IMG/VR virus record: IMGVR_UViG_3300009455_000007 | DNA: 64,000 nt | From: an uncultured virus (IMG/VR IMGVR_UViG_3300009455_000007) | Taxonomy: Duplodnaviria > Heunggongvirae > Uroviricota > Caudoviricetes | Strand: one strand, 5' to 3' | Shown: piece by piece, positions 29,484 through 51,161 of the stretch | How positions within the stretch are numbered: position 1 is the stretch's first letter | Layout: each line of letters begins with the position of its first letter | Notes under the pieces: model-generated | The model's input: the letters and a program-made list of their open reading frames with translations, nothing else | Told to the model about the DNA's origin: nothing | The model's database searches: none | Program-made: the position numbers and the translations under genes

Positions 29484-32400
29484 TTAGAAGTAGCGTGCGA
29501 AGGGGAGGGAGCGGTCGATGACGCGGCCGGCGTCGATAGCCTCATCACCCACGACGAAGCGGGAGGCGAGCCAGGCGTGCTCCATGGTCGGGCCGATCAA
29601 GCTGGAGCCAGGCAGCAGGCCGCGTTCCAGGTCGGTCATGGCGTCGGCGCCGAAGCTGCCGGAGCCGAGGATGCCCGAGCGCATGACGCCGTAGTTGAGG
29701 ATGTCCACCAGGCCGCCGTCACCGATCGGCTGGCCGGTCAGCATGCTCTTGGTCAGGCCCGAGGCGATAGTCACCGGCACGTAGGCGGCCAGGATCGCCG
29801 CCGGCATCATCTGGCCGTGCTCGAACTCGTTGTTCACGCGCGAGAGGATCGTCTTCTGGAAGGAGAAGGCGAACTGCTTGAGGTGGGCGACCAGCATCCA
29901 GTGCGGGTCGGACATCCACACCGGGCGCTGGGCAGCGTTCGGGCGGAGCACGGCGCCGTCGACGAAGCGGAAGAGGGCGTCTTGCACCTTCAGCTCACGG
30001 GCAGCTGCCTGCTTCTTGCTCGCGCCCAGGGCGATCATCTGTTCGGCGGTCACCGCCAGGCGGCCATCCGGCTTGACCATGACGTCGCTCGGCTCCAGGC
30101 CCAGCTCGTTCATGAAGCGGGTGTTGCCCACCTCGCGCTGGATGAAGCGCTCGCCAGCCACCATGGCGCTGATGCGCATGGAGCGGTTCCAGCTCTCCAT
30201 GCCGTTCCACTTGAAGAACTTCCGGTTGATGTTGCGCGCGTACTGGCTCATGAAGGCACCGGCGTGTGCCTGGCCCATAGCCTCCAGCATGTTCTGCTCG
30301 TCGATCAGGCCGATGGTCTTGGCCATGGCCTCGTCGTAGTCCGGCTGCTCCCCCTTCTTGCGGCGTACGGCCTTGGCAAAGTCACCCATGCCGCGCTTGA
30401 ACGCGTTCCAGGCCTCGATGGACGACTGCGCGCGCAGGCCGACGCCGAGGGCGTCGATGAACTGGCTGAAGATCGTCAGCGGCAGCAGGATGATGTTCTC
30501 GGTGGTGATCGCCGCGGACATCAGGTCCTTCATGCGCGGGTTGACGTCGGCGCCCAAGGTGCCGACCAGGCCCTTGACCGTGTTGGTCATCGCGGCGATC
30601 TGCTTGCCGTCGAGGTACTTGGCCGCCTCCTGGATCTTGTCGTCGATCACCTTGCCGTCGTTGCCGAAGTCACGGGCGAATTCGGCGCGGTGCGTCGCCT
30701 GGAAGATATAGCCGGTCAGCACGTCGGCCAGGTCATCGTTCTGGAACTTGGCGAACTCGGCCGCGTTGCCCTCGTTGATGAAGGACAGCTGGCGCTCGTT
30801 GACCGCGGCCGAGAACGGCGTGTAGCCGATGTGGTACTGGTTGCCCGAGAGCTGATCGTGATCGTCGCCGTGGCTGATCGACTTGATGATGGCGGCCTGC
30901 TGCTCGAGCCCCACGTTGCCGTGCAGCTGCAGCAGCGCCTTGAACTCGGCCTCGTTGTTGAGGATCTTGTTCGCGTCCCACTTGCGCGGGAAGTAGTTCT
31001 TGATCTTGCCCAGGTCCTTCCAGACGATCTGGCCGTCCTCCATCTCCGCGCGCTTCACGCCGGCCTCGACCATGTAGGCGTGCAGGTCGTCCAGGATCGC
31101 GCGGACCTGCTTCTCCAGCGGCGTGGAGGGGGCCTTCATGGACTGCAGGTTGCGCAGCGCCTGGGCGCGCTCGGTAGCGGTTGTGTTGTCGAACAGGCTG
31201 CTGACCTTGTTGAGGTACTGGGCGGCCAGCTTGGAGCGGCGCTGCAGGAAGCGCAGGCCGCCCTGCTCGCGACCAGGCTCGGTGGCGAACATGTCGGCCA
31301 GCTCGTCGGCCGCGGCCACGCCGAAGTCGCGCAGGCGGTCGGTGGCGACGAGCATCAGCTTGTCGGACACGTCGGCCAGCGGGCCGGCGATGCGGCGCGC
31401 CTTGTCGGTGAAGGTGTCCAGCTTCATGTCCTGGATCACGGCACCGACGATGTTGCGGTCGGCGAACTTGCCCTCGTACAGGGCCTCCAGGACCGCCTCG
31501 GCCTTCTCGCTCTCGCTCAGCACGCTGAGCAGGCCGCGGATCCAATCGGCGAGCTTCTCCAGCGCGTTGCGCGCGGCCTTGTCGTTGACCTTGAAGATCG
31601 GCTTGCCCAGGTACTTGCCCACGGCCCAGAACTGGAACATGTAGGCGACGCGCTCCTCGGGGTCGGCCTCGATCTGCTTGAGCGCCTCGGGGTGGTTCTT
31701 GAGCAGCTCCTTGAGTTGAGCCCGCACGTGCGGCATCTCGCCGGCCTTGAACAGTGCCTTGCGCAGGTCGCGCCCTTCGGGGCTGGCCTGCAGGCCGGCG
31801 ATGAAGTCGTGCAGTGCCTCGTGGTAGGCCACGCCCAGCGGGTCGACGGCGCTGATGGCGATCTTGATCGCGCGCTGCGCCTCGGTGTACTCGCCCGAGG
31901 CACCATCGATCTCGCCCTTGGGGACGAAGAACAGGTGCTGCTTGCGCCGGGTGTTCCGCAGGCCGGTGATCCGGGTGATCTCGGCCATGATGTCGTTCTT
32001 CAGCTTCTTGCTGATGCCGATGCCCGAGGTCTTGGTCGACTGGCTGCTGAAGCGGTAGCGATAGCGTGCGGCGTTGATCCGGCCCTGGGCCAGCGCCGGC
32101 GACACGTCGTTGCCCTGGCTGAGGATCGTCCACTCGTCGCGGCCGATGCCGCGCTGGATGATGATCTGCCCGGCGCGAGCGTTGCGGTCGACGGCGTCGA
32201 CGCCCTCCAGCTCCTCGATGGTGCCGTCGCGGTCGATCAGCAGGCGGGTCTGGCCGGCGGCCTTCTCGTCACGCGAACGGTTGATCGCCTCGATGCTGGC
32301 GGAGCTATCACCCGAGCCGTTGTTCTCGTAGTAGGGCTCCTGGAGGCTGTTCTTCTTGCGGCCGCCCGGCCCCGATCCGCCCACGGTCCTCTGCAGGTGC

Positions 32401-35400
32401 TTGGACGCGGCGACCTCGGCCGCCTCGATCGAGTCGAAGGTGCCGAGCTCCTGCGGAGGGTTGTCCTTGTAGAACTGCTCTTCCTTTTCCTCGGCGAGGG
32501 TACGCTTCTTCTTGCGACCACCCTTCGGCGGCGTCGGCGGCTTGGGCTTCCCGGACAGCTCCCAGGCTGCCAGCCATGCGCGCGCGAGCACGGCTTCGTC
32601 CGTAGACTTGGCCTTCTCTTCCGCCGCCTTGCGCTGCTCGATCCAGGCCAGCGCATCTTCGTTCTTCTGCTGCTCGGTCGCCTGCGCCTGGCGCACGGTG
32701 TCGCGGCGCGCGCGGGCATTAGCAATCATGCGCCCGCCGATCTGCTTGGCCAGCGTGTCGGTGCTCGTGCTCGACATCTTCTCGTAGCGGCGGGTCAGGT
32801 CTTCCTTCTTGGCCCGGGACGCCTCGGTGTACTGGAAGATCGCCTTCATGGCCGCGGCGAACTTGACCGGGTCCTTCGTGGTCGGGAAGTCGTTGTCGAC
32901 GAAGTAGTCCTTCACCGCCTTGGCGACGTACTGCGCCAAGCGCGCTTTCTGCAGAGCGAGGGACTCGTACGCACGCAGCGCCTGGGCGCGAATATCCGCC
33001 TGCGCCTTGGGCGTGGAGCTGAACTGGTCTTCCTTGCCGTGCAGCTGCTCGCCGAAGTCGCCGAAGTTGCGAATCTCGTCCAGGGTTTCGACGTCAGTGC
33101 GGTGGTCGACGCCAGCGGTGTCGCCGAAGCTGGACTCGGCCTGGAGGTTGCGCAGGTCGTCGCGCACGCTGTCGGTGGCCTGGCGGTACTCGTCGCGCAG
33201 CGCCTTCATGGCGGTGTTACCCATGCCCAAGCGTGCACGCATGGCCAGCTGCAGCGGCTCGGACAGCACGTTGTCCATGACGATCTGGTTGTAGGCCTTG
33301 AACGCCGCGGACCAGATTTCGCGGGACTCCTCCTTGGTCTTGCCGTTCGCGGCGGCCGCGGCGGCCTTCTTGATGTCCTTCATCTTGGACTTCGCGGCCG
33401 GCGAGCGTACTTCCGCCTCGATGCGGTCCTCGAGCTTCTGCTTAGCCAGCTCGGTGGGCGCGGAGAACTGGATCGCCTCGCTGAAGACCCGCGCACGCGC
33501 GTCCATCCGCGCCAGCACTTCCTTGATGCTCTCGAGCATGTCCGGCGTCTGGTCGTCCTGGTACTCGTCCATCAGCTCTTCGAGCTCAGCCTTGTCGGCC
33601 TCCAGCGCCTTGCGCTCGGTCTTGACGATGTCGCGCGCCGCGGCCATGGCCTCTTCGATGGCCGCGGTACCCTTGACGGTGACCTCGCGGCCGAGCGTCT
33701 GGCCGGTGTCGACGTCGATGATCAGGCCTCCATTGAGGCCCTCGAAGCGCGTGATCGTTTTGTCGGAGGTCGCCAGGTCGCCCAGCGCCTCAGTCAGCAG
33801 GCGCTGGGTGTATACGTCGTCGCGTTCGCCAGTGGACTGCGTGGTCTCGCGCGCACCCTTGAGCAGCGTGGCAGCCGACAGCTCGTACGGGCGCTCGACG
33901 CCGTTGGGCTGCATGCGGTAGACCTTGAACAGCGATCCCTTCAGGCGCTCGAGGGTCTTGGTGTTCTTCTTCTGGTTCGGCCCCGGGCGCGTGTCGATCG
34001 TGCGCGTCTGTTGCACACCTTTGCGGCCGGCAACGTACAGCTCCGGCGCGGTACGCCCAGTGTTGCCCGAGATAGCACTCTTCTCGGAGCGGATCACCTG
34101 CAGCTCGCGGGAGAGCGCTTCGACCACCTCGGGCTGCTCGATCAGCGGCTTCTCCGGATCGTAGCCGGCATTCTCGATCTTGGCCGTGGTCAGGCCGCGG
34201 AGCTTCACCCGGCCATCGATGTCGGCCAGCTCCTTCTCCTGGGCGGGCGTCAGCGCCTGACCGGCCCTGAGTGCGGCGCCCGCCTTCTGCTTGCGCTGGT
34301 CGTCCTGCTTGTCCTGCTTGTTCTTGGCGTCGATGAAGCGCTGCACGTACTGCGCAGTCTGGTCCAGGCTCAGCTCGCGCTCCTTGGCCACGTCGGCCAG
34401 GGTGACGAGGCGCGAGCGCACGCTGCGGTCCTGCGCGTTGCGCGTGCGCAGGCTGTGCGCCAGCTGGGAGCGCTTGGTCGTCTTGCCGTCGATCAGGCGC
34501 GGGGCGAAGAACGGCGTGTCGCCGTCAGCGCCGTCGAACTCGTAGGACACGCCGGCCAGCCTCTCGCGCTCGCCGATGGCCTCCTGGCGCGCGTCGAGCT
34601 GGGTCTGCGGCCCTTCCTCGGCATCCTCGGGTACCGCGGCGTCCATCCGCAGGTCGTCGCCCTCGGGCTCCGCGTCGTTCTTCGGGCGCTTGAGGAAGTT
34701 CACCTGCAGCTTGTAGTGGCGCAGCATGGTCTTGGCGGCCTGCTTCGACCCGAAAGCTTGGCGCAGCAGGGCCATCTCGCGGCTGCCGGGCTCCTCGCCC
34801 TTGATGGCCATGCGGTCGATCATGCGGCCGAGCATCTGGCGGGTCTCAGGCTTGGCCAGCCCCCGGAAGACCGGCGTCAGGTTCTGGCTCAACCAGCTGT
34901 TCTCGTCCTTGGCCTCGGTCTGCGCGCGCGTGGCGTCCTCGTAGACACGAGTCAGGCTCTTGGGGATGACCTTCTTCATGTCGCCGAACATGGGCTCACC
35001 GCCCCGTGCCAGCTTCTGCATCAGGTCGTGCACTTCGACGCCGTAGTCGTCCATCTCGTCGAGCCGGCGGAACAGCTGCACCATCGGAGCCAGCCGGTCG
35101 CGTACGCCCTTCTCGAACTGGAACTCCGGCTTCAGCTCCTTGAACAGCGCTTCGACCAGGGCGGGTTCTTCCGCCGGGTCCATGGCGTTCTTCTTGCCCT
35201 CGCCCATCTTGGCCTTGGCGGCGGCGAACTGCTCCTTGCCGAACTTGATCGCCTCATCCAGCGCGACGATGCCCTTGGCAGCCACGAACTTCGTCGCGCG
35301 CGCGGCCTGGTAGCCGGCAGCATGGCCGAGGATCTGGGCATCGTCTTCCGGCGTCGGGTCCGGCGACAGGACGCGTGCGGCCATGGCGCGTAGCTCGTCC

Positions 35401-36596
35401 GGCGCCTTCGGGTCGTTGAGGATGTTCTGCGCAGCCTTGGCGCGCAGCGTCGGCGCGTTGGCTTCCTGATCGGCCAGCGCCGCGGCGACTTCGGCCGGGT
35501 CGGTCGACTTCATGCGCGGGTCTTCCGGCACGATTGGGTCGGGCCCGGTAGCGCGGCGGTTGAGTTCGTTGACCACGTCCTCGTCGGACATGTTCTGGAA
35601 GTCGAAGTCTTCGATGGTCTGGTCGGCCCGCTGACGCAAACCCGCCATGCCTTCGGCCGTTCCTTCGACTGCGCCCTTGGCGGCGTCAACCGCCTTGCCG
35701 GCGGCGTCCTTGCCGGCCTTGCCCGCCTTGGCCAGCGCGTCGGCTGCCAGCTGGGTGCCGGCAGTCGGCAAGCTGATGCCGCCGCCACCGATAGCGCCCG
35801 CCGCAGAGGCGTCTAGCACACGCTGGCGGTTCTCCGGCGTGTCCAGGGTCGGGAGCGCTGCAGCCAGGCTGCCCTGGCGCAGAGTCTCTTGGGCCAGCAA
35901 GCCGCCGGTCTCCTGAGCCGCTTCGGTCGCGCCTTCGGTGACCATGGACTGACCGATGGTGCGCAGTGGGCTGGCGCCCGTGCGAAACAGCCCTTTGGAC
36001 AGCATGGCGGGGACGATCGATTCGAGCGCCGCATTGCCCAGGGCCTTGTTCCGTGCCAGCTCAGCGCGGCGTTCGACGTCCATAGCCGCGAGCTGCGGGT
36101 CCTGGTACTGGTTGAGGATCGCCTCGCCCTGCTCCATCTGGTACGCCGGCACTGCTGCGCCGAGGTAGGAGCTAGCGCCGGCCAAGCGGCCTGCGCCGGT
36201 TCGCGCCGCCAACGCACCGAGCATCACGGGCGCCATGGTCGCTGCGGCCTGGCCGAGGTGGCCGCCAACGAACGTACCAGCGTCGCTGAGGCTGTTGATG
36301 TCGCGCAGGGAGCTGACGGCAGGCCCGACCTGGGCTGCGCGCTGGGCATTGGTGGTGGCCTGGCCCAGGAGGCGCTGGAATTCGACATCGTCACCGGCGC
36401 GTTCGGCCGTCTGCGCCTCGTCGGCGTAGCTACCGGCCGTGATGCCGTAACCGCCGGCAGCGAAGCCGCGCTCCAGAGCGCTCATGCGCGCGGTGCGTTC
36501 GGCGTTCTCCAGCAGCAGTTCTTCGTCGGTCGGGCCTGCTGTAGCGAAGCTACGCAGTCGACTACGGCTACGGTTCCCCGTCAGCGGCTCTGCCAT
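29484..36596 (-). CDS. very large internal virion / ejection protein
   Basis: 2370-aa ORF with strong codon bias, last of three large helical genes; HEALH motif. Confidence 0.8.
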   Translation of the reverse strand: MAEPLTGNRSRSRLRSFATAGPTDEELLLENAERTARMSALERGFAAGGYGITAGSYADEAQTAERAGDDVEFQRLLGQATTNAQRAAQVGPAVSSLRDINSLSDAGTFVGGHLGQAAATMAPVMLGALAARTGAGRLAGASSYLGAAVPAYQMEQGEAILNQYQDPQLAAMDVERRAELARNKALGNAALESIVPAMLSKGLFRTGASPLRTIGQSMVTEGATEAAQETGGLLAQETLRQGSLAAALPTLDTPENRQRVLDASAAGAIGGGGISLPTAGTQLAADALAKAGKAGKDAAGKAVDAAKGAVEGTAEGMAGLRQRADQTIEDFDFQNMSDEDVVNELNRRATGPDPIVPEDPRMKSTDPAEVAAALADQEANAPTLRAKAAQNILNDPKAPDELRAMAARVLSPDPTPEDDAQILGHAAGYQAARATKFVAAKGIVALDEAIKFGKEQFAAAKAKMGEGKKNAMDPAEEPALVEALFKELKPEFQFEKGVRDRLAPMVQLFRRLDEMDDYGVEVHDLMQKLARGGEPMFGDMKKVIPKSLTRVYEDATRAQTEAKDENSWLSQNLTPVFRGLAKPETRQMLGRMIDRMAIKGEEPGSREMALLRQAFGSKQAAKTMLRHYKLQVNFLKRPKNDAEPEGDDLRMDAAVPEDAEEGPQTQLDARQEAIGERERLAGVSYEFDGADGDTPFFAPRLIDGKTTKRSQLAHSLRTRNAQDRSVRSRLVTLADVAKERELSLDQTAQYVQRFIDAKNKQDKQDDQRKQKAGAALRAGQALTPAQEKELADIDGRVKLRGLTTAKIENAGYDPEKPLIEQPEVVEALSRELQVIRSEKSAISGNTGRTAPELYVAGRKGVQQTRTIDTRPGPNQKKNTKTLERLKGSLFKVYRMQPNGVERPYELSAATLLKGARETTQSTGERDDVYTQRLLTEALGDLATSDKTITRFEGLNGGLIIDVDTGQTLGREVTVKGTAAIEEAMAAARDIVKTERKALEADKAELEELMDEYQDDQTPDMLESIKEVLARMDARARVFSEAIQFSAPTELAKQKLEDRIEAEVRSPAAKSKMKDIKKAAAAAANGKTKEESREIWSAAFKAYNQIVMDNVLSEPLQLAMRARLGMGNTAMKALRDEYRQATDSVRDDLRNLQAESSFGDTAGVDHRTDVETLDEIRNFGDFGEQLHGKEDQFSSTPKAQADIRAQALRAYESLALQKARLAQYVAKAVKDYFVDNDFPTTKDPVKFAAAMKAIFQYTEASRAKKEDLTRRYEKMSSTSTDTLAKQIGGRMIANARARRDTVRQAQATEQQKNEDALAWIEQRKAAEEKAKSTDEAVLARAWLAAWELSGKPKPPTPPKGGRKKKRTLAEEKEEQFYKDNPPQELGTFDSIEAAEVAASKHLQRTVGGSGPGGRKKNSLQEPYYENNGSGDSSASIEAINRSRDEKAAGQTRLLIDRDGTIEELEGVDAVDRNARAGQIIIQRGIGRDEWTILSQGNDVSPALAQGRINAARYRYRFSSQSTKTSGIGISKKLKNDIMAEITRITGLRNTRRKQHLFFVPKGEIDGASGEYTEAQRAIKIAISAVDPLGVAYHEALHDFIAGLQASPEGRDLRKALFKAGEMPHVRAQLKELLKNHPEALKQIEADPEERVAYMFQFWAVGKYLGKPIFKVNDKAARNALEKLADWIRGLLSVLSESEKAEAVLEALYEGKFADRNIVGAVIQDMKLDTFTDKARRIAGPLADVSDKLMLVATDRLRDFGVAAADELADMFATEPGREQGGLRFLQRRSKLAAQYLNKVSSLFDNTTATERAQALRNLQSMKAPSTPLEKQVRAILDDLHAYMVEAGVKRAEMEDGQIVWKDLGKIKNYFPRKWDANKILNNEAEFKALLQLHGNVGLEQQAAIIKSISHGDDHDQLSGNQYHIGYTPFSAAVNERQLSFINEGNAAEFAKFQNDDLADVLTGYIFQATHRAEFARDFGNDGKVIDDKIQEAAKYLDGKQIAAMTNTVKGLVGTLGADVNPRMKDLMSAAITTENIILLPLTIFSQFIDALGVGLRAQSSIEAWNAFKRGMGDFAKAVRRKKGEQPDYDEAMAKTIGLIDEQNMLEAMGQAHAGAFMSQYARNINRKFFKWNGMESWNRSMRISAMVAGERFIQREVGNTRFMNELGLEPSDVMVKPDGRLAVTAEQMIALGASKKQAAARELKVQDALFRFVDGAVLRPNAAQRPVWMSDPHWMLVAHLKQFAFSFQKTILSRVNNEFEHGQMMPAAILAAYVPVTIASGLTKSMLTGQPIGDGGLVDILNYGVMRSGILGSGSFGADAMTDLERGLLPGSSLIGPTMEHAWLASRFVVGDEAIDAGRVIDRSLPFARYF

Positions 36597-45599: not shown

Positions 45600-45777
45600 T
45601 TCGGTTACCTGCTGTAGGCCAAAGGTTGAGCGGACACCGCTCGGTTCGTAGCTGGACTTTCGCGCGCATGATACACCCACACAACCTGCACCGCTCTGTC
45701 AAGGGGATCTTTCCAGGGATCAGCTCGGGGCAGGTCTTGCATACGGCGAGCCTCGCCTTAGCTGAGGCGGACGCCAT
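45571..45777 (-). CDS. small Cys-rich protein
   Basis: R..C..C..C..CGC..K..CP..W. Confidence 0.6.
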   Translation of the reverse strand: MASASAKARLAVCKTCPELIPGKIPLTERCRLCGCIMRAKVQLRTERCPLNLWPTAGNRNEQNVEPPR

Positions 45778-47101
45778 TTTTCCACACCTCTGCTTCGGCT
45801 CGGTCGGACACCGCCAGCGGATTCTCCGTGCCGCCGCGCACCGTGGTCAGTACCTGGCGCAGACCTGCGACCTCGCGGACGACCGTCGCGGCGGCCTCGG
45901 CGTTGGCCGGGCCGACGAACCGGTCGCGGTGCAAAGGAGTGACCCGGCCACCGGCACCGCCGACCACCATGCCGCCAGCGGTGTCGAACCAGAACGGGAC
46001 GCTACCGCTGCCTTCGAGGCCCAGCAGCACAGGGTCGACCTGCGTCGGGCTTCCGACCACGACGCCGTGTGCGTGCGCGATGGCGCGCGTCCACTTCGCC
46101 GGTTCGGCGCCGGAGAAGAAGTAGGTGCGCTTGGCGTCGGCGACGAACAGTCCAGTCTCCTCGCCGAGATGCAGGCCCTCGATCATGGTGCCGTCGCCGT
46201 TCATGTGCACGTAGTTGGCGTGCAGGATCCCCTGGCCGTAGTGCATGGCCTCGGAGAAGTACAGGATGTTGTACCGGAACACGTACATGCGGCCGCGGTA
46301 GAGGCGGACGATCTGGCCGGGCGGCAGCGGTTCGTGGAACTGCGTGGCCAGCGGCGCGCCGAGCATCTGGGCGCCGAGCACGTAGGTGGTCAGGCCGACG
46401 GGGATGTCCTGGCAGAAGCGCAGCACCGTGCCGTTGGTGTGGGTGGCGTAGATCCGGATCCAGGCGGCTTCGGGGTCGGTCGGCTGCGGGATCGACAGCA
46501 GGCGGATGCCCTGGCCCTCAGTGAGCTCGATGTCGGCCGCCATGGTCGTGCCCGACTCGCGGCCGGAGGCGTCGCGGTAGGTGATGGCCACCTGGTACTG
46601 CCCCGCCGCCAGGCCGCCGGCCGCGTTGGCCTGCAGCAGGGGCTGCCCGGTCGGAGGCTGCAGCGCCCACGGCGAGCGGAAGCCGTCGAAGTCGACGCGG
46701 CCGCTGTCGAAGCCGTTGGTGTAGTAGACGTAGCCCGCGTCGAACGCATAGCTCATGCGCGTGCCGGCCGGCGCCGTCAATGCGACGATGGTCGTACGCG
46801 CCAGGTCCTCGTTGTACTTGACCAGGTTCTGGCCGTGCACGGCCAGCATGTAGGGGTAGCGCTTGTCCGCCCACACGGACTGCAGGTCGGTTGTTGCCTC
46901 CACCACGGTGTAGCCGCGGCGACGGGAGATCTTGCCCTGCTCGTTGATGTCGACGTTGTCGGCCACGCGCAGGGCGCCCTGGACCGTGCCGCCCGGCCCC
47001 TTCTTGCCCATGGCCAGACCGGTTTCGGAAGACAGGTTGTCCAGCCCCTGGGGCCAGCCCAGGAGTTGGGTCAACGCGCTGTCACGCACACCGGTCATCA
47101 A
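45758..47101 (-). CDS. putative tail nozzle / tubular protein
   Basis: GLDN..LR.A.NVDI..G..RR.G start; beta-propeller-like content. Confidence 0.65.
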   Translation of the reverse strand: MMTGVRDSALTQLLGWPQGLDNLSSETGLAMGKKGPGGTVQGALRVADNVDINEQGKISRRRGYTVVEATTDLQSVWADKRYPYMLAVHGQNLVKYNEDLARTTIVALTAPAGTRMSYAFDAGYVYYTNGFDSGRVDFDGFRSPWALQPPTGQPLLQANAAGGLAAGQYQVAITYRDASGRESGTTMAADIELTEGQGIRLLSIPQPTDPEAAWIRIYATHTNGTVLRFCQDIPVGLTTYVLGAQMLGAPLATQFHEPLPPGQIVRLYRGRMYVFRYNILYFSEAMHYGQGILHANYVHMNGDGTMIEGLHLGEETGLFVADAKRTYFFSGAEPAKWTRAIAHAHGVVVGSPTQVDPVLLGLEGSGSVPFWFDTAGGMVVGGAGGRVTPLHRDRFVGPANAEAAATVVREVAGLRQVLTTVRGGTENPLAVSDRAEAEVWKNGVRLS

Positions 47102-47204
47102 CTTTCCCTCTTCTCTGCGTTATCGACGCGCTGCTCGAGCCCGTCAATCGATAAGTGCCAGGGCCGACCCCGAGGAGCGCGGACTGTCGCCCTGGCTGCC
47201 GGTG

Positions 47205-47516
47205 TTATTTCCCACCGCCGGCCGGGGCCCCGAATGCTGCCTTGAGCCGCTGCCAGAAGCCAGGGTCGTCCGCCAGGAGTTCGCGCAAGCGCTGGAACGT
47301 CCCTTCGTCCTTCGCCATGGCTGCAGCGGCCTGGATGATGTACTGCTGTTCGTCGCCCTCGGTGCGGAGTTCATCGATCTTCAGTGTCGGCCGCGGCGCC
47401 GGCGTCGTCAGTGCCTGCACGTTGGGCGGCGGCAATGGCTTCGGCTGCATTCCGGTACAGCTGCAGAGAAGCATCAGGAAGGGGGCGATCCAGATAAGCG
47501 CGGTAGGACGGTGCAT
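47205..47516 (-). CDS. o-spanin (Rz1-like lipoprotein)
   Basis: Signal peptide with lipobox LLCSC, Pro-rich after Cys; starts inside the i-spanin gene. Confidence 0.75.
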   Translation of the reverse strand: MHRPTALIWIAPFLMLLCSCTGMQPKPLPPPNVQALTTPAPRPTLKIDELRTEGDEQQYIIQAAAAMAKDEGTFQRLRELLADDPGFWQRLKAAFGAPAGGGK

Positions 47517-47754
47517 TTCGGGCTGCCTCTTGGTTCTTGGTTTGCGCGCGGCTGACACCGGCGTCGATGGCAGCCTGGTCGCGCATGTTGTCGGTGACCA
47601 GGCCATCGTACTTCTTGCCCTGGTTCTGCAGGGTGGTCACCTGGCCCTTGACGTTGCGGAACTCCCACCATGCAGCCACGCGGCTGCGTGTGCTCCACCC
47701 AATCAGCAGGAGGATCACGGCGAGGATAGTGATGCCCCACAGCTTCGGAGTCAT
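47371..47754 (-). CDS. i-spanin (Rz-like)
   Basis: N-terminal TM helix then helical domain; ATGA-coupled to the endolysin. Confidence 0.75.
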   Translation of the reverse strand: MTPKLWGITILAVILLLIGWSTRSRVAAWWEFRNVKGQVTTLQNQGKKYDGLVTDNMRDQAAIDAGVSRAQTKNQEAARNAPSYRAYLDRPLPDASLQLYRNAAEAIAAAQRAGTDDAGAAADTEDR

Positions 47755-48422
47755 GCGCGTGCGCGGATCATGATGTAGTCCGCCTCCTGGTTGCGGCGTG
47801 CGATCAGGCCCTTGCCTAGCTTGGAGCCGCGCCAGATGCGCTCCATCTTCCGGATCTGGTTGGCCGTGCACGCGTGGTCGCGCGCGGGGAAGCACACGTC
47901 GCGGATGTGGCGCATCTCCAAGCGGTCTTTGCCGACCATGTTCCCGCCGCGGTTGTAGACCAGGTCGAGGATCATGTCGATGACCGCCTGGTCCTGGTCC
48001 TGCAGCCCGGGGAACGACCGGCGCGCGATGTTGTAGTAGCGGATCAGCGTCGGGTCGCGGAAGACCTGCATGGCCATGGGCAGCGGCGTGATGATCCACG
48101 CGCGGCGCTTGGCCAGGTTGCCTGCCGACTGGCCCTTGAACCCAGACATGGCGGCGAGATAACCACGGTGCGGGTGCATGTGCCAGTCGGCCAGGATCCG
48201 CTCGACCGAGTTGTGGCCCAGGTCGTAGCCGATGCCGATCGTGACACCGGACGCGCTGTTGCCCGGCCAGATCGGCATCTGGTACCTGCGGGTGTACAGC
48301 TCCGGACCGCCGACCTCCCAGCGCGCGATGAATTTCTCGCCCGCCGGCGATACGACCGCCCGAGACTGCGCGGACGCGTAGCCGGAGAGGATCAGCAGCA
48401 GGAGGACGAAGAGGGCGCGCAT
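47751..48422 (-). CDS. endolysin (lysozyme-like) with N-terminal signal peptide
   Basis: MRALFVLLLLILSGYASA-Q; WE..WPG..SGVTIGIGYDLG; LVYNRG; GL..RR..EA. Confidence 0.85.
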   Translation of the reverse strand: MRALFVLLLLILSGYASAQSRAVVSPAGEKFIARWEVGGPELYTRRYQMPIWPGNSASGVTIGIGYDLGHNSVERILADWHMHPHRGYLAAMSGFKGQSAGNLAKRRAWIITPLPMAMQVFRDPTLIRYYNIARRSFPGLQDQDQAVIDMILDLVYNRGGNMVGKDRLEMRHIRDVCFPARDHACTANQIRKMERIWRGSKLGKGLIARRNQEADYIMIRARA

Positions 48423-48832
48423 CAGCCGAAGACCACCCGGTACCAGAAGTAGAAGCACAGGGCCCACACGCCGATGTCGACCAGGCGCGTGTACAGCAGC
48501 AGCTCCTTCTGCTCGAACGACACCGAGGCCTCGATCATGTACCGGTGGGCCTCCACGATCTCCTCGGGGGCGAACACGTGGTCGTAGGTGCGCTTCGTCA
48601 GCCAGGAGCTGAAGCAGATGATGATGCCGCCGACCAGGTTGACGATCATGGCGTTGAGCTGGCCCAGGCCGTCGATGCCGCTGGTCGGGTCGAGCTGCGG
48701 GAACAGCCAGCGGGTCAGGAACACCATGCCGATCGCCGGCGGCAGCCAGAAGATGATCTCCTGGTATGCCTTGAGCAGGGCCTTGATGCGGTCCTTGTGG
48801 GCCTTGAGGAAATTGATGATCGGCTTCTTCAA
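48422..48832 (-). CDS. putative holin
   Basis: AGGAG SD + TTG start; three hydrophobic segments; directly upstream of the endolysin. Confidence 0.7.
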   Translation of the reverse strand: MKKPIINFLKAHKDRIKALLKAYQEIIFWLPPAIGMVFLTRWLFPQLDPTSGIDGLGQLNAMIVNLVGGIIICFSSWLTKRTYDHVFAPEEIVEAHRYMIEASVSFEQKELLLYTRLVDIGVWALCFYFWYRVVFG

Positions 48833-49527
48833 TGTGATTCTCCTACTACGTTGCGGCGGATGACCCCCACCCACTTCACGACTGGGCCGTTGTGCGCTTC
48901 GCGCACCGGCGTGGCCGAACAGATCACGTCGAACTCATGCCCGGCCACGTCGCGCATGCGGTAGTTCAGGACGAACTCGCGCATGTCCTCGATGCAGGAC
49001 TCCCACTCGCGGCGCACCATGTCGCGGTCGGCGAAGACGATGGCGTTGATCCAGCCGGTGCCGCCGAGCTCCTTGTCGGAGCGGTTGGTCCATTTCTGGT
49101 ACGTAGCGTTGGTATAGACGTGGTTGCCGTTGGCGTCGCACTCGAAGACCCCGAACATGCCCATGCCGTCCCACTGCGCGCGCGTGCTGTTGATGAAGAG
49201 GGTCAGGGCGACTTCGGTCCGCTTGGCGGTGTCCCTGGTGGTGTTGACTGCGTCGCGCAGCGAGCTCCCGCCGTTCGGCCGGACCTCGTGCAGAACCTGG
49301 CGCATGGTCTCGTCCATGCTGTTGAACTTCTGGATCATGGGGATGTAGTCGGGCAGGGCCGACAGGGCAGCGACGCCGCTGAAGAACCTACCGACCGACT
49401 TGGCTGCGCTGGTGATCAATGGCCATCCCCATTTCTTGAACCCAAGAGCCGTAAGTAGCGTGACGATCAAGAGCAGGAGCTCGCCGGCCGCACTCAACTT
49501 CGAAAACCATGCGGACATCGAGTCCAT
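48829..49527 (-). CDS. membrane-anchored PAS-domain protein in the lysis cassette
   Basis: TM LLLLIVTLLTALGF; EVRPNGGSSLRDAV; PAS pattern GVFECDANG..Y.N..G.GW..I..DR..V..W..F..YR..G..A.P..G..W.G. Confidence 0.85.
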   Translation of the reverse strand: MDSMSAWFSKLSAAGELLLLIVTLLTALGFKKWGWPLITSAAKSVGRFFSGVAALSALPDYIPMIQKFNSMDETMRQVLHEVRPNGGSSLRDAVNTTRDTAKRTEVALTLFINSTRAQWDGMGMFGVFECDANGNHVYTNATYQKWTNRSDKELGGTGWINAIVFADRDMVRREWESCIEDMREFVLNYRMRDVAGHEFDVICSATPVREAHNGPVVKWVGVIRRNVVGESH

Positions 49528-49560
49528 GCTGTATCCCTCCCTTCGCCCCGTACCGGGGCA

Positions 49561-50217
49561 TTACCACGAGAACTGCATACCCCGATATTTGTGCTCGCGT
49601 TGTCCTTTCTCACCCTTGGCCATGAAGCAGTACTGCTCGAACTCGGCTTTGTACTGCGTTGCCCGGCCGCGGTCGTACGTCTCGGCATCCGGCTTCATGT
49701 GCGCCAGGTAGCGCGCCCACTTGAGGATGGCGATGTGGTGCTGCTCGTCGATCTCCAGGTCCTGCCCCGAGCCTTCGATCTCCTCCAGCGGGAGCCGGTA
49801 GACGATCAGGCTGAGGGTGGCGTCCTCGGTCGGCGTGTTGATCACGCGGACCTGGTTCGGCTCCATGCCAACGACGAGCTTGTTCACGACGCCGGGGGTG
49901 TCGGTGAACAGGGGCAAGCCCTTGCTGTCGTCGAACTCCAGGTCCTCGAAGTTGACGATCTCGATCTTCTTGCCGTCGGCGTTGAACGCCGCGCGCAGCT
50001 TCAGTACGAGCGGAGACAGGGTCGCGAAGCGCTCGCCTGCCACCAGTTCCATGCGGGCGACTTCGCTGGTGGCGTCGGCGAGCCCACCGGTGAGGCGGCA
50101 GAACATCTTCTGCGCCTCATCGATGTACCTGTACAGCTCCGCGTCGCTCCAGAGGTACGTCTGTACCGTGTCCCGGAGGTCGAGGCGGAGCTGATCGAGC
50201 AGGTCGCCGCTTTCCAT
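49561..50217 (-). CDS. head-tail adaptor protein
   Basis: D..YLWSD.EL..YI.EAQ..FCR; position after capsid genes. Confidence 0.7.
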   Translation of the reverse strand: MESGDLLDQLRLDLRDTVQTYLWSDAELYRYIDEAQKMFCRLTGGLADATSEVARMELVAGERFATLSPLVLKLRAAFNADGKKIEIVNFEDLEFDDSKGLPLFTDTPGVVNKLVVGMEPNQVRVINTPTEDATLSLIVYRLPLEEIEGSGQDLEIDEQHHIAILKWARYLAHMKPDAETYDRGRATQYKAEFEQYCFMAKGEKGQREHKYRGMQFSW

Positions 50218-50621
50218 CAGCTGTTCTTTTCGGCCTCGATGCGGTCAGCGCGGCGCTGCCAGGCCTTGGCGACATCCTTGGCCGACACCTTGAAACCGCA
50301 CTCGCGGCTGACGGCGTCCGCCTTCGGCGAGCTGGCCGCGGTGAAATCGTCGACGTCGTTGCGCTCGACGATCGCCTCGATTGCGGCGTCGATGCGCGCC
50401 TCACGCTCGACCGGATCGATCGGCTCGTGGTTGCCTTCCTCGGCCGGCGCCGCCAGGCCCTCGCCGTCGACGAACTCGCCGCCGATCGCCAGGATCTCGC
50501 CGTAGAGCAGCGGCGGCACGCTGGTCGGCTCGCCCTTGATGAACCTGATCGAGTGGCCAAGCAGCGACGTATGGATGTAGGTCCGGTTGAGCTTCATCTT
50601 GCGGTTGGCCTTCTTCGCCAT
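50217..50621 (-). CDS. hypothetical protein
   Basis: GGAG SD; DFTA..P..V..GF.V. Confidence 0.7.
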   Translation of the reverse strand: MAKKANRKMKLNRTYIHTSLLGHSIRFIKGEPTSVPPLLYGEILAIGGEFVDGEGLAAPAEEGNHEPIDPVEREARIDAAIEAIVERNDVDDFTAASSPKADAVSRECGFKVSAKDVAKAWQRRADRIEAEKNS

Positions 50622-50699: not shown

Positions 50700-51161
50700 T
50701 TAGGCCGGGTTGACTTCCCGGCCACCGCGCCCGTCCTTCTTGTACAGGACGGTGATGCGGAACTTGCCGGCCGTCGCGTTGGCCGCCGTGGAGGCGATGG
50801 TCAGGCGGATCGGCGACCCGTCGGCGCTGCCCAGTGCCGAGGTCAGCAACAGAGCGTAGCGGGTGTTGTCCGCGGCCTTGAGGTCGGAGGCCGCCAGGTA
50901 GATCGCGTCCGAGGCCGCGGTACCCAGCTTGACGGTGTACGCAGTCGGGCCGGCGCCCTGGTCTTCGACCACCAGGTGGCCGCCGAGGATCTCGGCGCCC
51001 ACCGGCAGGTTGATCGCGTCCAGGATGAGGGCGTCGGTGTACACGGAGCCGAAGGTCTTGCTGGCGCCGGTGACCGAGTCGACCGCGGTGTCGTTGAATT
51101 TGAAGATGAATTCCGCGCAGAGGACGTCCTGCGAGGTGCGAGTTGCGGCGAGCAATGCCAT
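50700..51161 (-). CDS. capsid decoration / cement protein
   Basis: Beta-rich 153 aa directly after the major capsid gene. Confidence 0.65.
   Translation of the reverse strand: MALLAATRTSQDVLCAEFIFKFNDTAVDSVTGASKTFGSVYTDALILDAINLPVGAEILGGHLVVEDQGAGPTAYTVKLGTAASDAIYLAASDLKAADNTRYALLLTSALGSADGSPIRLTIASTAANATAGKFRITVLYKKDGRGGREVNPA

Follow-up and report, generated by a model that had tools for sequence, protein, structure and literature searches.

We identified a gene for a membrane-anchored protein with a C-terminal PAS domain at the head of a lysis cassette in DNA from an uncultured tailed phage (IMG/VR record IMGVR_UViG_3300009455_000007; Caudoviricetes). The stretch analyzed, 64,000 nucleotides in length, is referred to here as the window. 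The PAS gene is followed by genes encoding a holin-like protein, a candidate endolysin and two candidate spanins, and all genes of the cassette lie on the minus strand (Table 1). With moderate confidence, we consider the PAS protein to be a LysF1b-type lysis regulator with a single helix that has become fused to a PAS domain and acts on the adjacent holin-like protein. What is new here is a large phage protein family that has no Pfam model, the invariant motif of this family, and a tentative bridge from it to the LysF1b/DUF2746 regulators, the only lysis regulators of the one-helix type backed by genetics.

The PAS protein contains a single hydrophobic helix (best 19-residue window at residues 11–29, Kyte-Doolittle score 2.0) behind an N-terminal tail of 13 residues, and the sequence KKWGWP follows the helix directly. 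The motif PNGGSSLRDAV occupies residues 84–94. Pfam PAS_3 (PF08447) matches residues 137–223 across profile positions 2–89 of 89 with an E-value of 1.9e-10 and 41.3 bits, compared with a cut-off of 25.6 bits. The Pfam matches to PAS_9, PAS_4 and PAS are weaker, and no output domain or other non-PAS domain was found in Pfam at E≤0.1. A scan against NCBIfam returned nothing beyond a sub-threshold match to the PAS 'sensory_box' model. The original prediction, made from the sequence without database searches, had described a transmembrane helix, a helical linker carrying PNGGSSLRDAV and a complete C-terminal PAS-like domain with no output domain, and each of these is seen in the open reading frame (ORF), the hydropathy profile, the Pfam matches and the structure model.

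Near-identical copies of the gene occur in contigs from two DNA sequencing runs of separate studies, with groundwater and freshwater as their labels; one of these runs may be the source sample. A variant approximately 97–98% identical is present in a third run. Of the 16 listed differences in its PAS ORF, 15 are synonymous and the remaining one is V52I; the PAS ORF is under purifying selection. Among the listed differences in the same variant, 9 of 9 in the lysozyme gene and 2 of 4 in the holin-like gene are synonymous; 22 further differences over the whole compared stretch fall outside those listed.

Structure prediction supports the PAS assignment. An initial AlphaFold2 model built from 27 sequences has a mean predicted local distance difference test (pLDDT) score of 71, and a second, built from 102 sequences, reaches a mean of 86 with a PAS core of about 98. 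The model consists of helices at residues 2–27, 35–56, 58–82 and 89–122 followed by five strands (126–130, 136–139, 185–192, 198–209 and 216–225, pLDDT about 98) that form an antiparallel sheet with flanking helices. The loop at residues 83–88 is the turn of the motif and lies between two cytoplasmic helices, and helix 89–122 runs without interruption from the motif into the PAS core. PAS domains usually relay changes of conformation or dimerization along a helix of this type. The best solved match to the first model in Foldseek is 3lyx_A (E = 1.5e-8), of the PAS/LOV class. With VIA-align the best match is 3h9w_A, also of the PAS/LOV class (Z 15.5, root-mean-square deviation 2.4, 107 residues aligned), and the PAS domains of NifL, Aer and the hERG/ELK channels score Z 14.1–14.2. 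The PAS fold that had been proposed is therefore borne out both by the above-cut-off profile match and by superposition of the model on solved PAS/LOV domains. A search of the ESM Atlas with residues 1–120 gave no usable match.

The Aer energy sensor (8dik) and the hERG and ELK channels (1byw, 4hp4) likewise carry a cytoplasmic PAS domain attached to a membrane-embedded part. However, this likeness is at the level of the fold, with 12–15% identity, and the phage protein has no HAMP, kinase or channel domain. The flavin consensus of LOV domains with its reactive cysteine (GXNCRFLQ) is absent from the translation of the PAS protein. Its cysteines C130, C178 and C203 are not in a LOV context, and in the alignment of 102 family sequences no cysteine is a conserved column. 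No flavin-binding signature or other cofactor signature was seen in the PAS domain.

The PAS gene is tightly packed against the gene that follows it. Its TGA stop codon shares two bases with the TTG start of the holin-like gene, the stop of the holin-like gene overlaps the ATG of the endolysin gene, and the endolysin stop in turn overlaps the ATG of the i-spanin gene. Reading of the sequence thus agrees with the earlier description of a PAS stop codon overlapping the holin start and of holin-like, endolysin and spanin genes following with overlaps.

The portion of the protein that is most conserved is not the PAS domain. A word-indexed search returned 32 homologues of 149–242 amino acids, nearly all metagenomic, in which the best-conserved part is E81-x-x-P-N-G-G-[S/G]-S-[L/M]-R-D-x-V. 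Pattern scans with the motif covered 80 of 175 confirmed viral loci, 10 genome loci and 80 of 190 confirmed metagenome loci. A motif-bearing ORF on the plus strand is present in all of the first 90 loci, with 75 unique proteins. A family PAS hidden Markov model (HMM) recognizes the domain in 49 of these 75, and the rest, 72–172 amino acids long, consist of the helix, the motif and a further helix. When a profile of the 77-residue helix-plus-motif module was compared with 1.84 billion representative proteins, a cut-off of E≤1e-3 gave 3,475 matches, of which 135 also passed E≤1e-10. We examined 148 of the best 150 matches: 75 are shorter than 150 amino acids and 73 longer, the motif is present in 142, and PAS_3 is found in 59 of the 73 long members, with no other domain recurring.

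No Pfam family covers the module. Its counterpart in PHROGs, phrog_9869, is of unknown function and matches the PAS protein in the motif region only (residues 73–100, profile positions 60–87 of 98, E = 1.9e-5, 25.6 bits). Matches to PspB are below cut-off; a single 72-amino acid relative scores at all, with 18.7 compared with 51.7 bits in NCBIfam and 15.5 compared with 25.6 bits in Pfam. The module profile finds chance-level matches only among PDB sequences, the best (E = 0.088) being the neck of surfactant protein D, which ends in ELFPNGG. This resemblance suggests no more than a helix-ending role for a PNGG turn. A split form, with a module gene and a stand-alone PAS gene, was not found among the neighbors of the 75 loci using the family PAS HMM. 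No match at E≤0.01 or 0.001 was obtained when the PAS protein and the family members P0041 and P0061 were compared by tblastn with 50,697 cultured-phage records.

The membrane topology is consistent throughout the family. Among 130 members with a clear helix ahead of the motif, 126 have more lysine and arginine residues in the 15 positions behind the helix (mean 3.5) than in front of it (mean 0.38). Median values are 9 residues for the N-terminal tail and 33 residues for the distance of the motif past the helix. Given this charge bias, the motif and the PAS domain are predicted to be cytoplasmic.

Forms with the motif and no PAS domain occur beside lysis genes. In Streptomyces phage mu1/6, gp52 follows the endolysin gp50 and the holin gp51, with gene overlap, and in Thermobifida phage P1312 the gene for gp40 (147 amino acids) overlaps the start of the amidase gene. 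The GenBank name of P1312 gp40 (L091:3794-4237), 'sensory protein kinase CreC', looks wrong, as the protein has no kinase or PAS match. A further 17 unique and closely related viral loci (L053–L080) have, in this order, a minor tail gene, a 72-amino acid helix-plus-motif gene, a gene for a protein with two transmembrane (TM) helices (phrog_25359, unknown function) and an endolysin gene (phrog_21357). This arrangement looks like a compact pair of the LysF1b/LysF1a type outside the actinophages.

To describe the genomic context of the family, genes within 3 kb on either side of the 75 unique loci were clustered and cluster representatives were scanned against PHROGs, with a lysis function assigned where the best match had E≤1e-5. 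Inner positions (−2 to +4) hold 375 proteins in 249 clusters and outer positions 300 proteins in 230 clusters. Lysis PHROGs are found in 19 of the inner clusters and 5 of the outer (odds ratio 3.7, p = 0.006), and the outer genes are a poor background because several of their lysis matches are the far end of the same cassette. Dereplication at 60% identity yields 47 groups. Of the 38 with a PAS domain, 14 have a gene assigned to a lysis PHROG in the flank that was surveyed, and among the 9 with the motif only the number is 5. The window's own locus ends right after the PAS gene, and counting its cassette brings the number of PAS groups to 15 of 38. Additionally, a small (≤170 amino acids) ORF with a predicted membrane helix stands on the same strand at position +1 in 11 of 37 PAS groups, compared with 43 of 347 other positions (odds ratio 3.0, p = 0.01).

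Three loci of close relatives (L002, L081 and L094), whose PAS proteins are 50–51% identical to that in the window, keep the order PAS, holin-like (about 49% identity), lysozyme (67–73%) and i-spanin (about 40%). A nozzle gene is next in L002 and L081, and L094 ends before that point. L002 has an extra gene (L002:6958-7203, plus strand) between the holin-like and lysozyme genes, encoding an 81-amino acid lipoprotein-like product (LLLTGC); it is absent from the window. In more distant loci of the same phage lineage (L004 and L005/L006, PAS 33% identical) the PAS gene is found just upstream of the nozzle gene with a spanin-like gene at −1 or −3. Contigs of equal length suggest co-occurrence with lysozyme homologues for the PAS homologues P0004, P0005, P0007, P0014, P0015 and P0019, and with holin-like homologues for P0003 and P0004. 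Tail fiber genes lie in the loci L011, L013 and L082, which are without lysis genes, and in L008 the PAS gene directly precedes the endolysin gene with no other membrane gene between. The linkage of the PAS family to lysis genes is real but partial.

A relationship to characterized lysis proteins is suggested by comparison with DUF2746. In the report on LysF1b (PMC13056207), this protein of F1-cluster mycobacteriophages is described as having 124 amino acids and one transmembrane domain (TMD) with its N-terminus out and C-terminus in, and as being needed for efficient lysis. Its gene overlaps the upstream two-TMD gene lysF1a, and the protein matches DUF2746 by HHpred. LysF1b alone supports lysis that can be triggered by energy poisons, and its authors speak of a new class of holin (PMC13056207). 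In mycobacteriophage D29, according to a preprint (10.64898/2026.08.27.747656), the gene for the homologue LysA2b lies outside the cassette, close to that for the tape measure protein, a swap of the one-TMD regulator alters the triggering time, LysA2a and LysA2b are cytotoxic when co-expressed but not singly, and a lipoprotein modulates lysis; the authors propose that the two-TMD protein is inactive until the one-TMD regulator activates it.

We assembled a comparison set of eight DUF2746 proteins, two of them actinobacterial (2 of 401 genomes matched) and six from phages (among 992 phage records with a tblastn match), Wee gp34 being one of the six. These share the core N-x-H-x-x-N-x-R-x-x-x-D within the sequence EQV-N-T-H-x-T-N-LRD-D-I-D-R-L. 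In hhalign this core falls on KEV-P-N-G-G-S-S-LRD-A-V-N-R-I-E of the PAS protein, with the invariant LRD on the invariant arginine of DUF2746. The module alignment (A2) matches the eight proteins with a probability of 70% (E = 4e-5, 37 columns), and the full-length PAS-family alignment (A5) does so in the same register with a probability of 82% (E = 1.1e-5, 36 columns). A negative control against the alignment of the holin-like family gave a probability of 0.15%. Homology of the module to DUF2746 is probable on these alignments.

The overall design of the proteins is similar as well. LysF1b and LysA2b resemble the architecture predicted for the PAS protein: a short external N-terminal tail and one helix are followed by basic residues, and the cytoplasmic part is helical. 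Like the genes of the motif family, their genes abut a gene for a multi-helix holin-like protein with stop/start overlap or sit among tail genes. In mycobacteriophage Wee, the DUF2746 gene product gp34 follows LysA, LysB and a two-TM holin, with gene overlap; the gp33/gp34 layout is matched in the window, but in reversed order, with the regulator gene first. The protein differs from LysF1b and LysA2b in that its motif is different and far more invariant, it carries a C-terminal PAS domain, and the phage encodes spanins. The architecture, the gene contexts (by a holin or among tail genes) and the predicted topology agree with a link to LysF1b. DUF2746 genes of mycobacteriophages and Gordonia phages (L177–L182) are often named 'minor tail protein' in GenBank, as for Wee gp34, Soups gp32 and Carcharodon gp30, a label that has probably been carried over from neighboring genes.

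A mechanism can be proposed on this basis. The PAS protein would be made together with the downstream two- to three-helix holin-like protein by translational coupling, and the two would meet in the membrane via their helices and juxtamembrane regions. The PNGG[S/G]SLRD turn and its flanking helices would be the conserved working part, and the long helix 89–122 a rigid link from this part to the PAS domain. Through such a link, ligand occupancy or dimerization of the PAS domain could shift the moment at which the partner turns lytic. As the lysozyme seems to be exported by Sec, loss of the membrane potential is all that the holin-like protein would have to bring about; depolarization would then activate the exported lysozyme and the spanins would finish the envelope. 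A broader proposal, that this is the first member seen of a widespread class of signal-reading lysis timers in which a one-helix holin activator, distantly like LysF1b, has its cytoplasmic tail replaced by a PAS domain and lysis is advanced or postponed by a cytoplasmic metabolite, redox or energy cue, is considerably more tentative, and we regard it as possible rather than probable.

Several observations weigh against a LysF1b-like regulator. The profile-profile match to DUF2746 is short and of moderate probability. HMMER searches at E≤0.1 to 1 found no match to DUF2746 (PF10874) for the PAS protein or for 12 motif-only relatives, and no DUF2746 match at E≤1 was obtained in phage mu1/6 or in four genomes of Streptomyces, although each of the five encodes motif proteins. 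The cytoplasmic stretch before the PAS domain (residues 32–122) is 22% charged, and everything past the helix 26%, compared with 30–50% DEKRH residues in the cytoplasmic C-terminal parts of LysF1b-like proteins (PMC13056207). Furthermore, the holin-like protein has no family match in Pfam, PHROGs or NCBIfam, and the endolysin is itself weakly recognized (Pesticin/lysozyme matches in Pfam at E = 0.0084–0.0095). The residues conserved in the PAS family (G134, G156, W159 and W175) look structural. Ligand binding and sensing by the PAS domain, its contact with the holin-like protein and the direction of its effect are all inferred. For PAS loci alone, lysis genes are found in 14 of 205 inner and 5 of 157 outer genes, which is not significant (p = 0.16). 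The proximity of lysis genes was compared with outer genes of the same 12-kb loci, and the lysis-gene expectation of 10–15% for a random gene is a rough estimate, not a computed value.

The genomic contexts also lend weight to an alternative in which the protein has no part in lysis. It could be a membrane-tethered PAS protein that interferes with host PAS sensors, excludes superinfecting phages or contributes to host takeover, and that occupies a variable slot shared with lysis genes. PAS domains often act by heterodimerizing with other PAS domains, which suits such a role. Of the 38 PAS groups, 24 lack a recognized lysis gene of PHROGs in the flank that was surveyed, a number that drops to 23 once the cassette of the window is included, so the linkage of homologues to lysis genes expected in the original prediction held for a part of the family. 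Some PAS loci lie beside genes for DNA metabolism (L009, L014, L036 and L045; exonuclease, PhoH/thymidylate synthase and DNA polymerase genes are among the contexts), terminase (L029, L034 and L035) or integrase (L032). However, the PAS and holin-like genes are joined by a stop/start overlap and a shared arrangement of ribosome binding, and every close relative seen has holin-like and lysozyme genes of these same families. The invariant part of the protein is the module, which occurs without PAS domains beside holins and endolysins and has profile similarity to DUF2746. In addition, genes of the LysF1b type are also known away from cassettes (10.64898/2026.08.27.747656), so distant contexts of PAS genes do not exclude a role in lysis. 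We consider a function outside lysis unlikely, although it is the strongest of the alternatives.

Somewhat less likely still, the PAS protein could itself form the hole or act as the trigger, as a holin that has one helix and a bulky regulatory domain in the cytoplasm, with the two- to three-helix protein as an antiholin or accessory. The lysis obtained with LysF1b alone is compatible with this, as are loci such as L008 in which the PAS gene comes straight before the endolysin gene, and a motif-only relative, gp68 of Arthrobacter phage Wheelbite, is annotated 'holin'. However, the Wheelbite label is an unverified annotation, and a protein of 232 amino acids with a folded domain of 110 residues does not resemble known holins. 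In size and number of helices, the membrane protein encoded downstream is the more holin-like of the two, and the later work on D29 favors the one-helix protein as the activator of the two-helix protein (10.64898/2026.08.27.747656).

Control of the endolysin rather than the holin, in the manner of the Mu gp25 releasin, which frees or activates a membrane-tethered or secreted endolysin and is, according to PMC13056207, the characterized one-TMD lysis protein most like LysF1b in structure and membrane topology, is improbable: the endolysin has a hydrophobic, signal-like N-terminus and probably crosses the membrane without a large-hole holin, but this signal sequence is leucine-rich with an ASA-Q site and reads more like a cleaved signal peptide than a signal-arrest-release anchor, no match to the releasin family DUF2730 (PF10805) was found in Pfam at E≤0.1 to 1, and motif relatives are also found in actinophages with endolysins that lack a signal of this kind. 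Releasin has one membrane helix and works in lysis together with an exported endolysin, as the PAS protein would; it has no PAS domain, however, and a separate holin-like gene is present in the window.

The favored regulator of the LysF1b kind can also be compared with lysis inhibition in T4, where the holin T is controlled by the antiholins RI in the periplasm and RIII in the cytoplasm (PMC11413866 and PMC8385771). The proposed role of the PAS protein is similar to that of RI and RIII, as a separate phage protein adjusts holin triggering to a signal. However, RI senses in the periplasm and inhibits, while the PAS protein is predicted to face the cytoplasm and its nearest experimentally studied analogues promote lysis. 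A Pfam scan of the PAS protein matched PAS families alone, with no similarity to RI or RIII. Consequently, the suggestion in the original prediction of a sensor-type antiholin resembling T4 RI is not upheld. Its other suggestion, a holin partner that acts on lysis timing, gains from the coupling to the holin-like gene, the conserved gene order, the recurrence of the module by holins and endolysins in unrelated phages, cultured actinophages among them, and the alignment with DUF2746. Such a partner might further tie lysis timing to host physiology, as was suggested.

The searchable literature contains neither the motif strings, nor a PAS-domain protein in a lysis cassette, nor a report linking PAS domain, bacteriophage and lysis timing; papers retrieved with PAS, endolysin and holin look unrelated by their titles and the beginnings of their abstracts. 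This agrees with the earlier statement that no PAS-regulated lysis module has been characterized.

Table 1. Features of the PAS gene and the accompanying lysis cassette in the window
Feature	Position	Strand	Remarks
Shine-Dalgarno-like sequence GGGAGGGA	49534..49541	minus	6 nt between its end and the ATG of the PAS gene; direct sequence reading
PAS gene, 232 amino acids	48829..49527	minus	ATG at 49527, TGA at 48831-48829; ORF list, PAS_3 above cut-off, 32 homologues
Membrane helix, residues ~14-31, predicted N-out/C-in	49435..49488	minus	hydropathy and family charge bias
Motif E-x-x-PNGG[S/G]SLRD-x-V, residues 81-94	49246..49287	minus	invariant columns in alignments A1, A2 and A5
PAS domain, residues ~123-228	48844..49161	minus	Pfam PAS_3/PAS_9/PAS_4/PAS, model, Foldseek, VIA-align
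AGGAG ribosome-binding site for the holin-like gene	48840..48844	minus	7 nt upstream of the TTG, in the 3′ end of the PAS gene
Holin-like protein, 136 amino acids	48422..48832	minus	TTG 48832-48830, stop 48424-48422; 2-3 hydrophobic helices, K-rich N-terminus
Endolysin candidate, 223 amino acids	47751..48422	minus	ATG 48422-48420; signal-like N-terminus MRALFVLLLLILSGYASA and divergent GH24/pesticin-type lysozyme domain
i-spanin candidate, 127 amino acids, N-terminal membrane helix	47371..47754	minus	ATG 47754-47752; position, relatives ~40% identical
o-spanin candidate, 103 amino acids, lipobox-like LLCSC	47205..47516	minus	ATG 47516; start inside the i-spanin gene

The holin-like protein has hydrophobic segments at residues 26–44, 61–79 and 111–129, the third of which scores 1.54 against a threshold of 1.6. 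It has just seven database homologues, and the protein in the same position in L002 is 49% identical. It is termed holin-like by position and shape only. The alignment of its family (A4; the seven homologues, the L002 protein and the query) shows two unusually conserved segments, LDPxSxIDGxGQ in the loop that joins helices 1 and 2, and YQEIxxWxPPA. This conservation exceeds what is usual for holins, and the segments may form a specific contact surface.

Support for the remaining genes comes largely from their relatives. The 73 homologues of the endolysin include some with the name GH24 lysozyme or phage lysozyme and some with a PF00959 or PF16754 domain, and the L002 homologue (67% identity) matches endolysin PHROGs; comparison of the endolysin with PDB sequences gave nothing meaningful. 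The o-spanin candidate matches phrog_456, an Rz-like spanin family, with E = 7.8e-4 and, on a longer ORF, Pfam LysC with E = 0.072. Its L002 counterpart matches phrog_456 with E = 2.2e-7. The i-spanin candidate itself has no family match and shares approximately 40% identity with its counterparts in L002, L081 and L094. We accept these genes as a lysis cassette on this evidence, and the presence of spanins points to a diderm host.

The cassette lies inside a structural module, with a gene for an SU10-type adaptor (49561-50217) on one side and a nozzle/Hc3 gene (45758-47101) on the other. A scan of 46900-50400 identified no promoter-like site, and terminator-like sites were at chance level. A short GC-rich hairpin, CCCCG-GTA-CGGGG (49546-49558, minus strand), comes immediately behind the stop codon of the adaptor gene and ahead of the Shine-Dalgarno-like sequence of the PAS gene. 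The hairpin has no T-run behind it, and it is absent from the list produced by the terminator scan.

The window looks like phage DNA throughout, the plus strand carrying the early genes to approximately 21 kb and the minus strand the late ones. A prophage was considered and rejected, as the flanks also consist of phage genes, including plus-strand matches to exonuclease and helicase-like PHROGs. The early arm (1-21000) has 55–64% G+C and a positive AT skew, and the late arm (21000-59000) 63–70% G+C, a difference that is unusual within one phage genome; both arms carry phage genes. An ORF of 2,370 amino acids (29484-36596, minus strand) matches 'virion structural protein' PHROGs over its last 800 or so residues only (phrog_30152, E = 1.9e-127), leaving the first 1,500 unmatched. 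Beside the major capsid gene, a 153-amino acid ORF (50700-51161, minus strand) matches phrog_20969, 'Rz-like spanin', with E = 3.8e-7. It has no predicted membrane helix and lies among head genes, and the spanin label is probably misleading; the product may be a head decoration or accessory protein.

The timing of lysis sets the burst size and fitness of a phage, and in model phages it is treated as a clock intrinsic to the holin. The exception known to us is lysis inhibition in T4-type phages, N4 and ICP1, which responds to superinfection from outside the cell. If the proposed reading is correct, a cytoplasmic PAS domain on a lysis regulator would allow conditions inside the host cell to enter the lysis decision. 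The four- to five-gene cassette is compact, residues N85, G86, G87, R91 and D92 can be tested, and a ligand-gated lysis module, if it is one, would be useful for engineering. The LysF1b/DUF2746 regulators have so far come mostly from phages of Gram-positive hosts, and the tentative link described here would extend them to this module. With thousands of clusters in the family, about half of them PAS-fused, lysis control that senses the cytoplasm, unknown in model phages, would on the broader proposal be common among uncultured phages.

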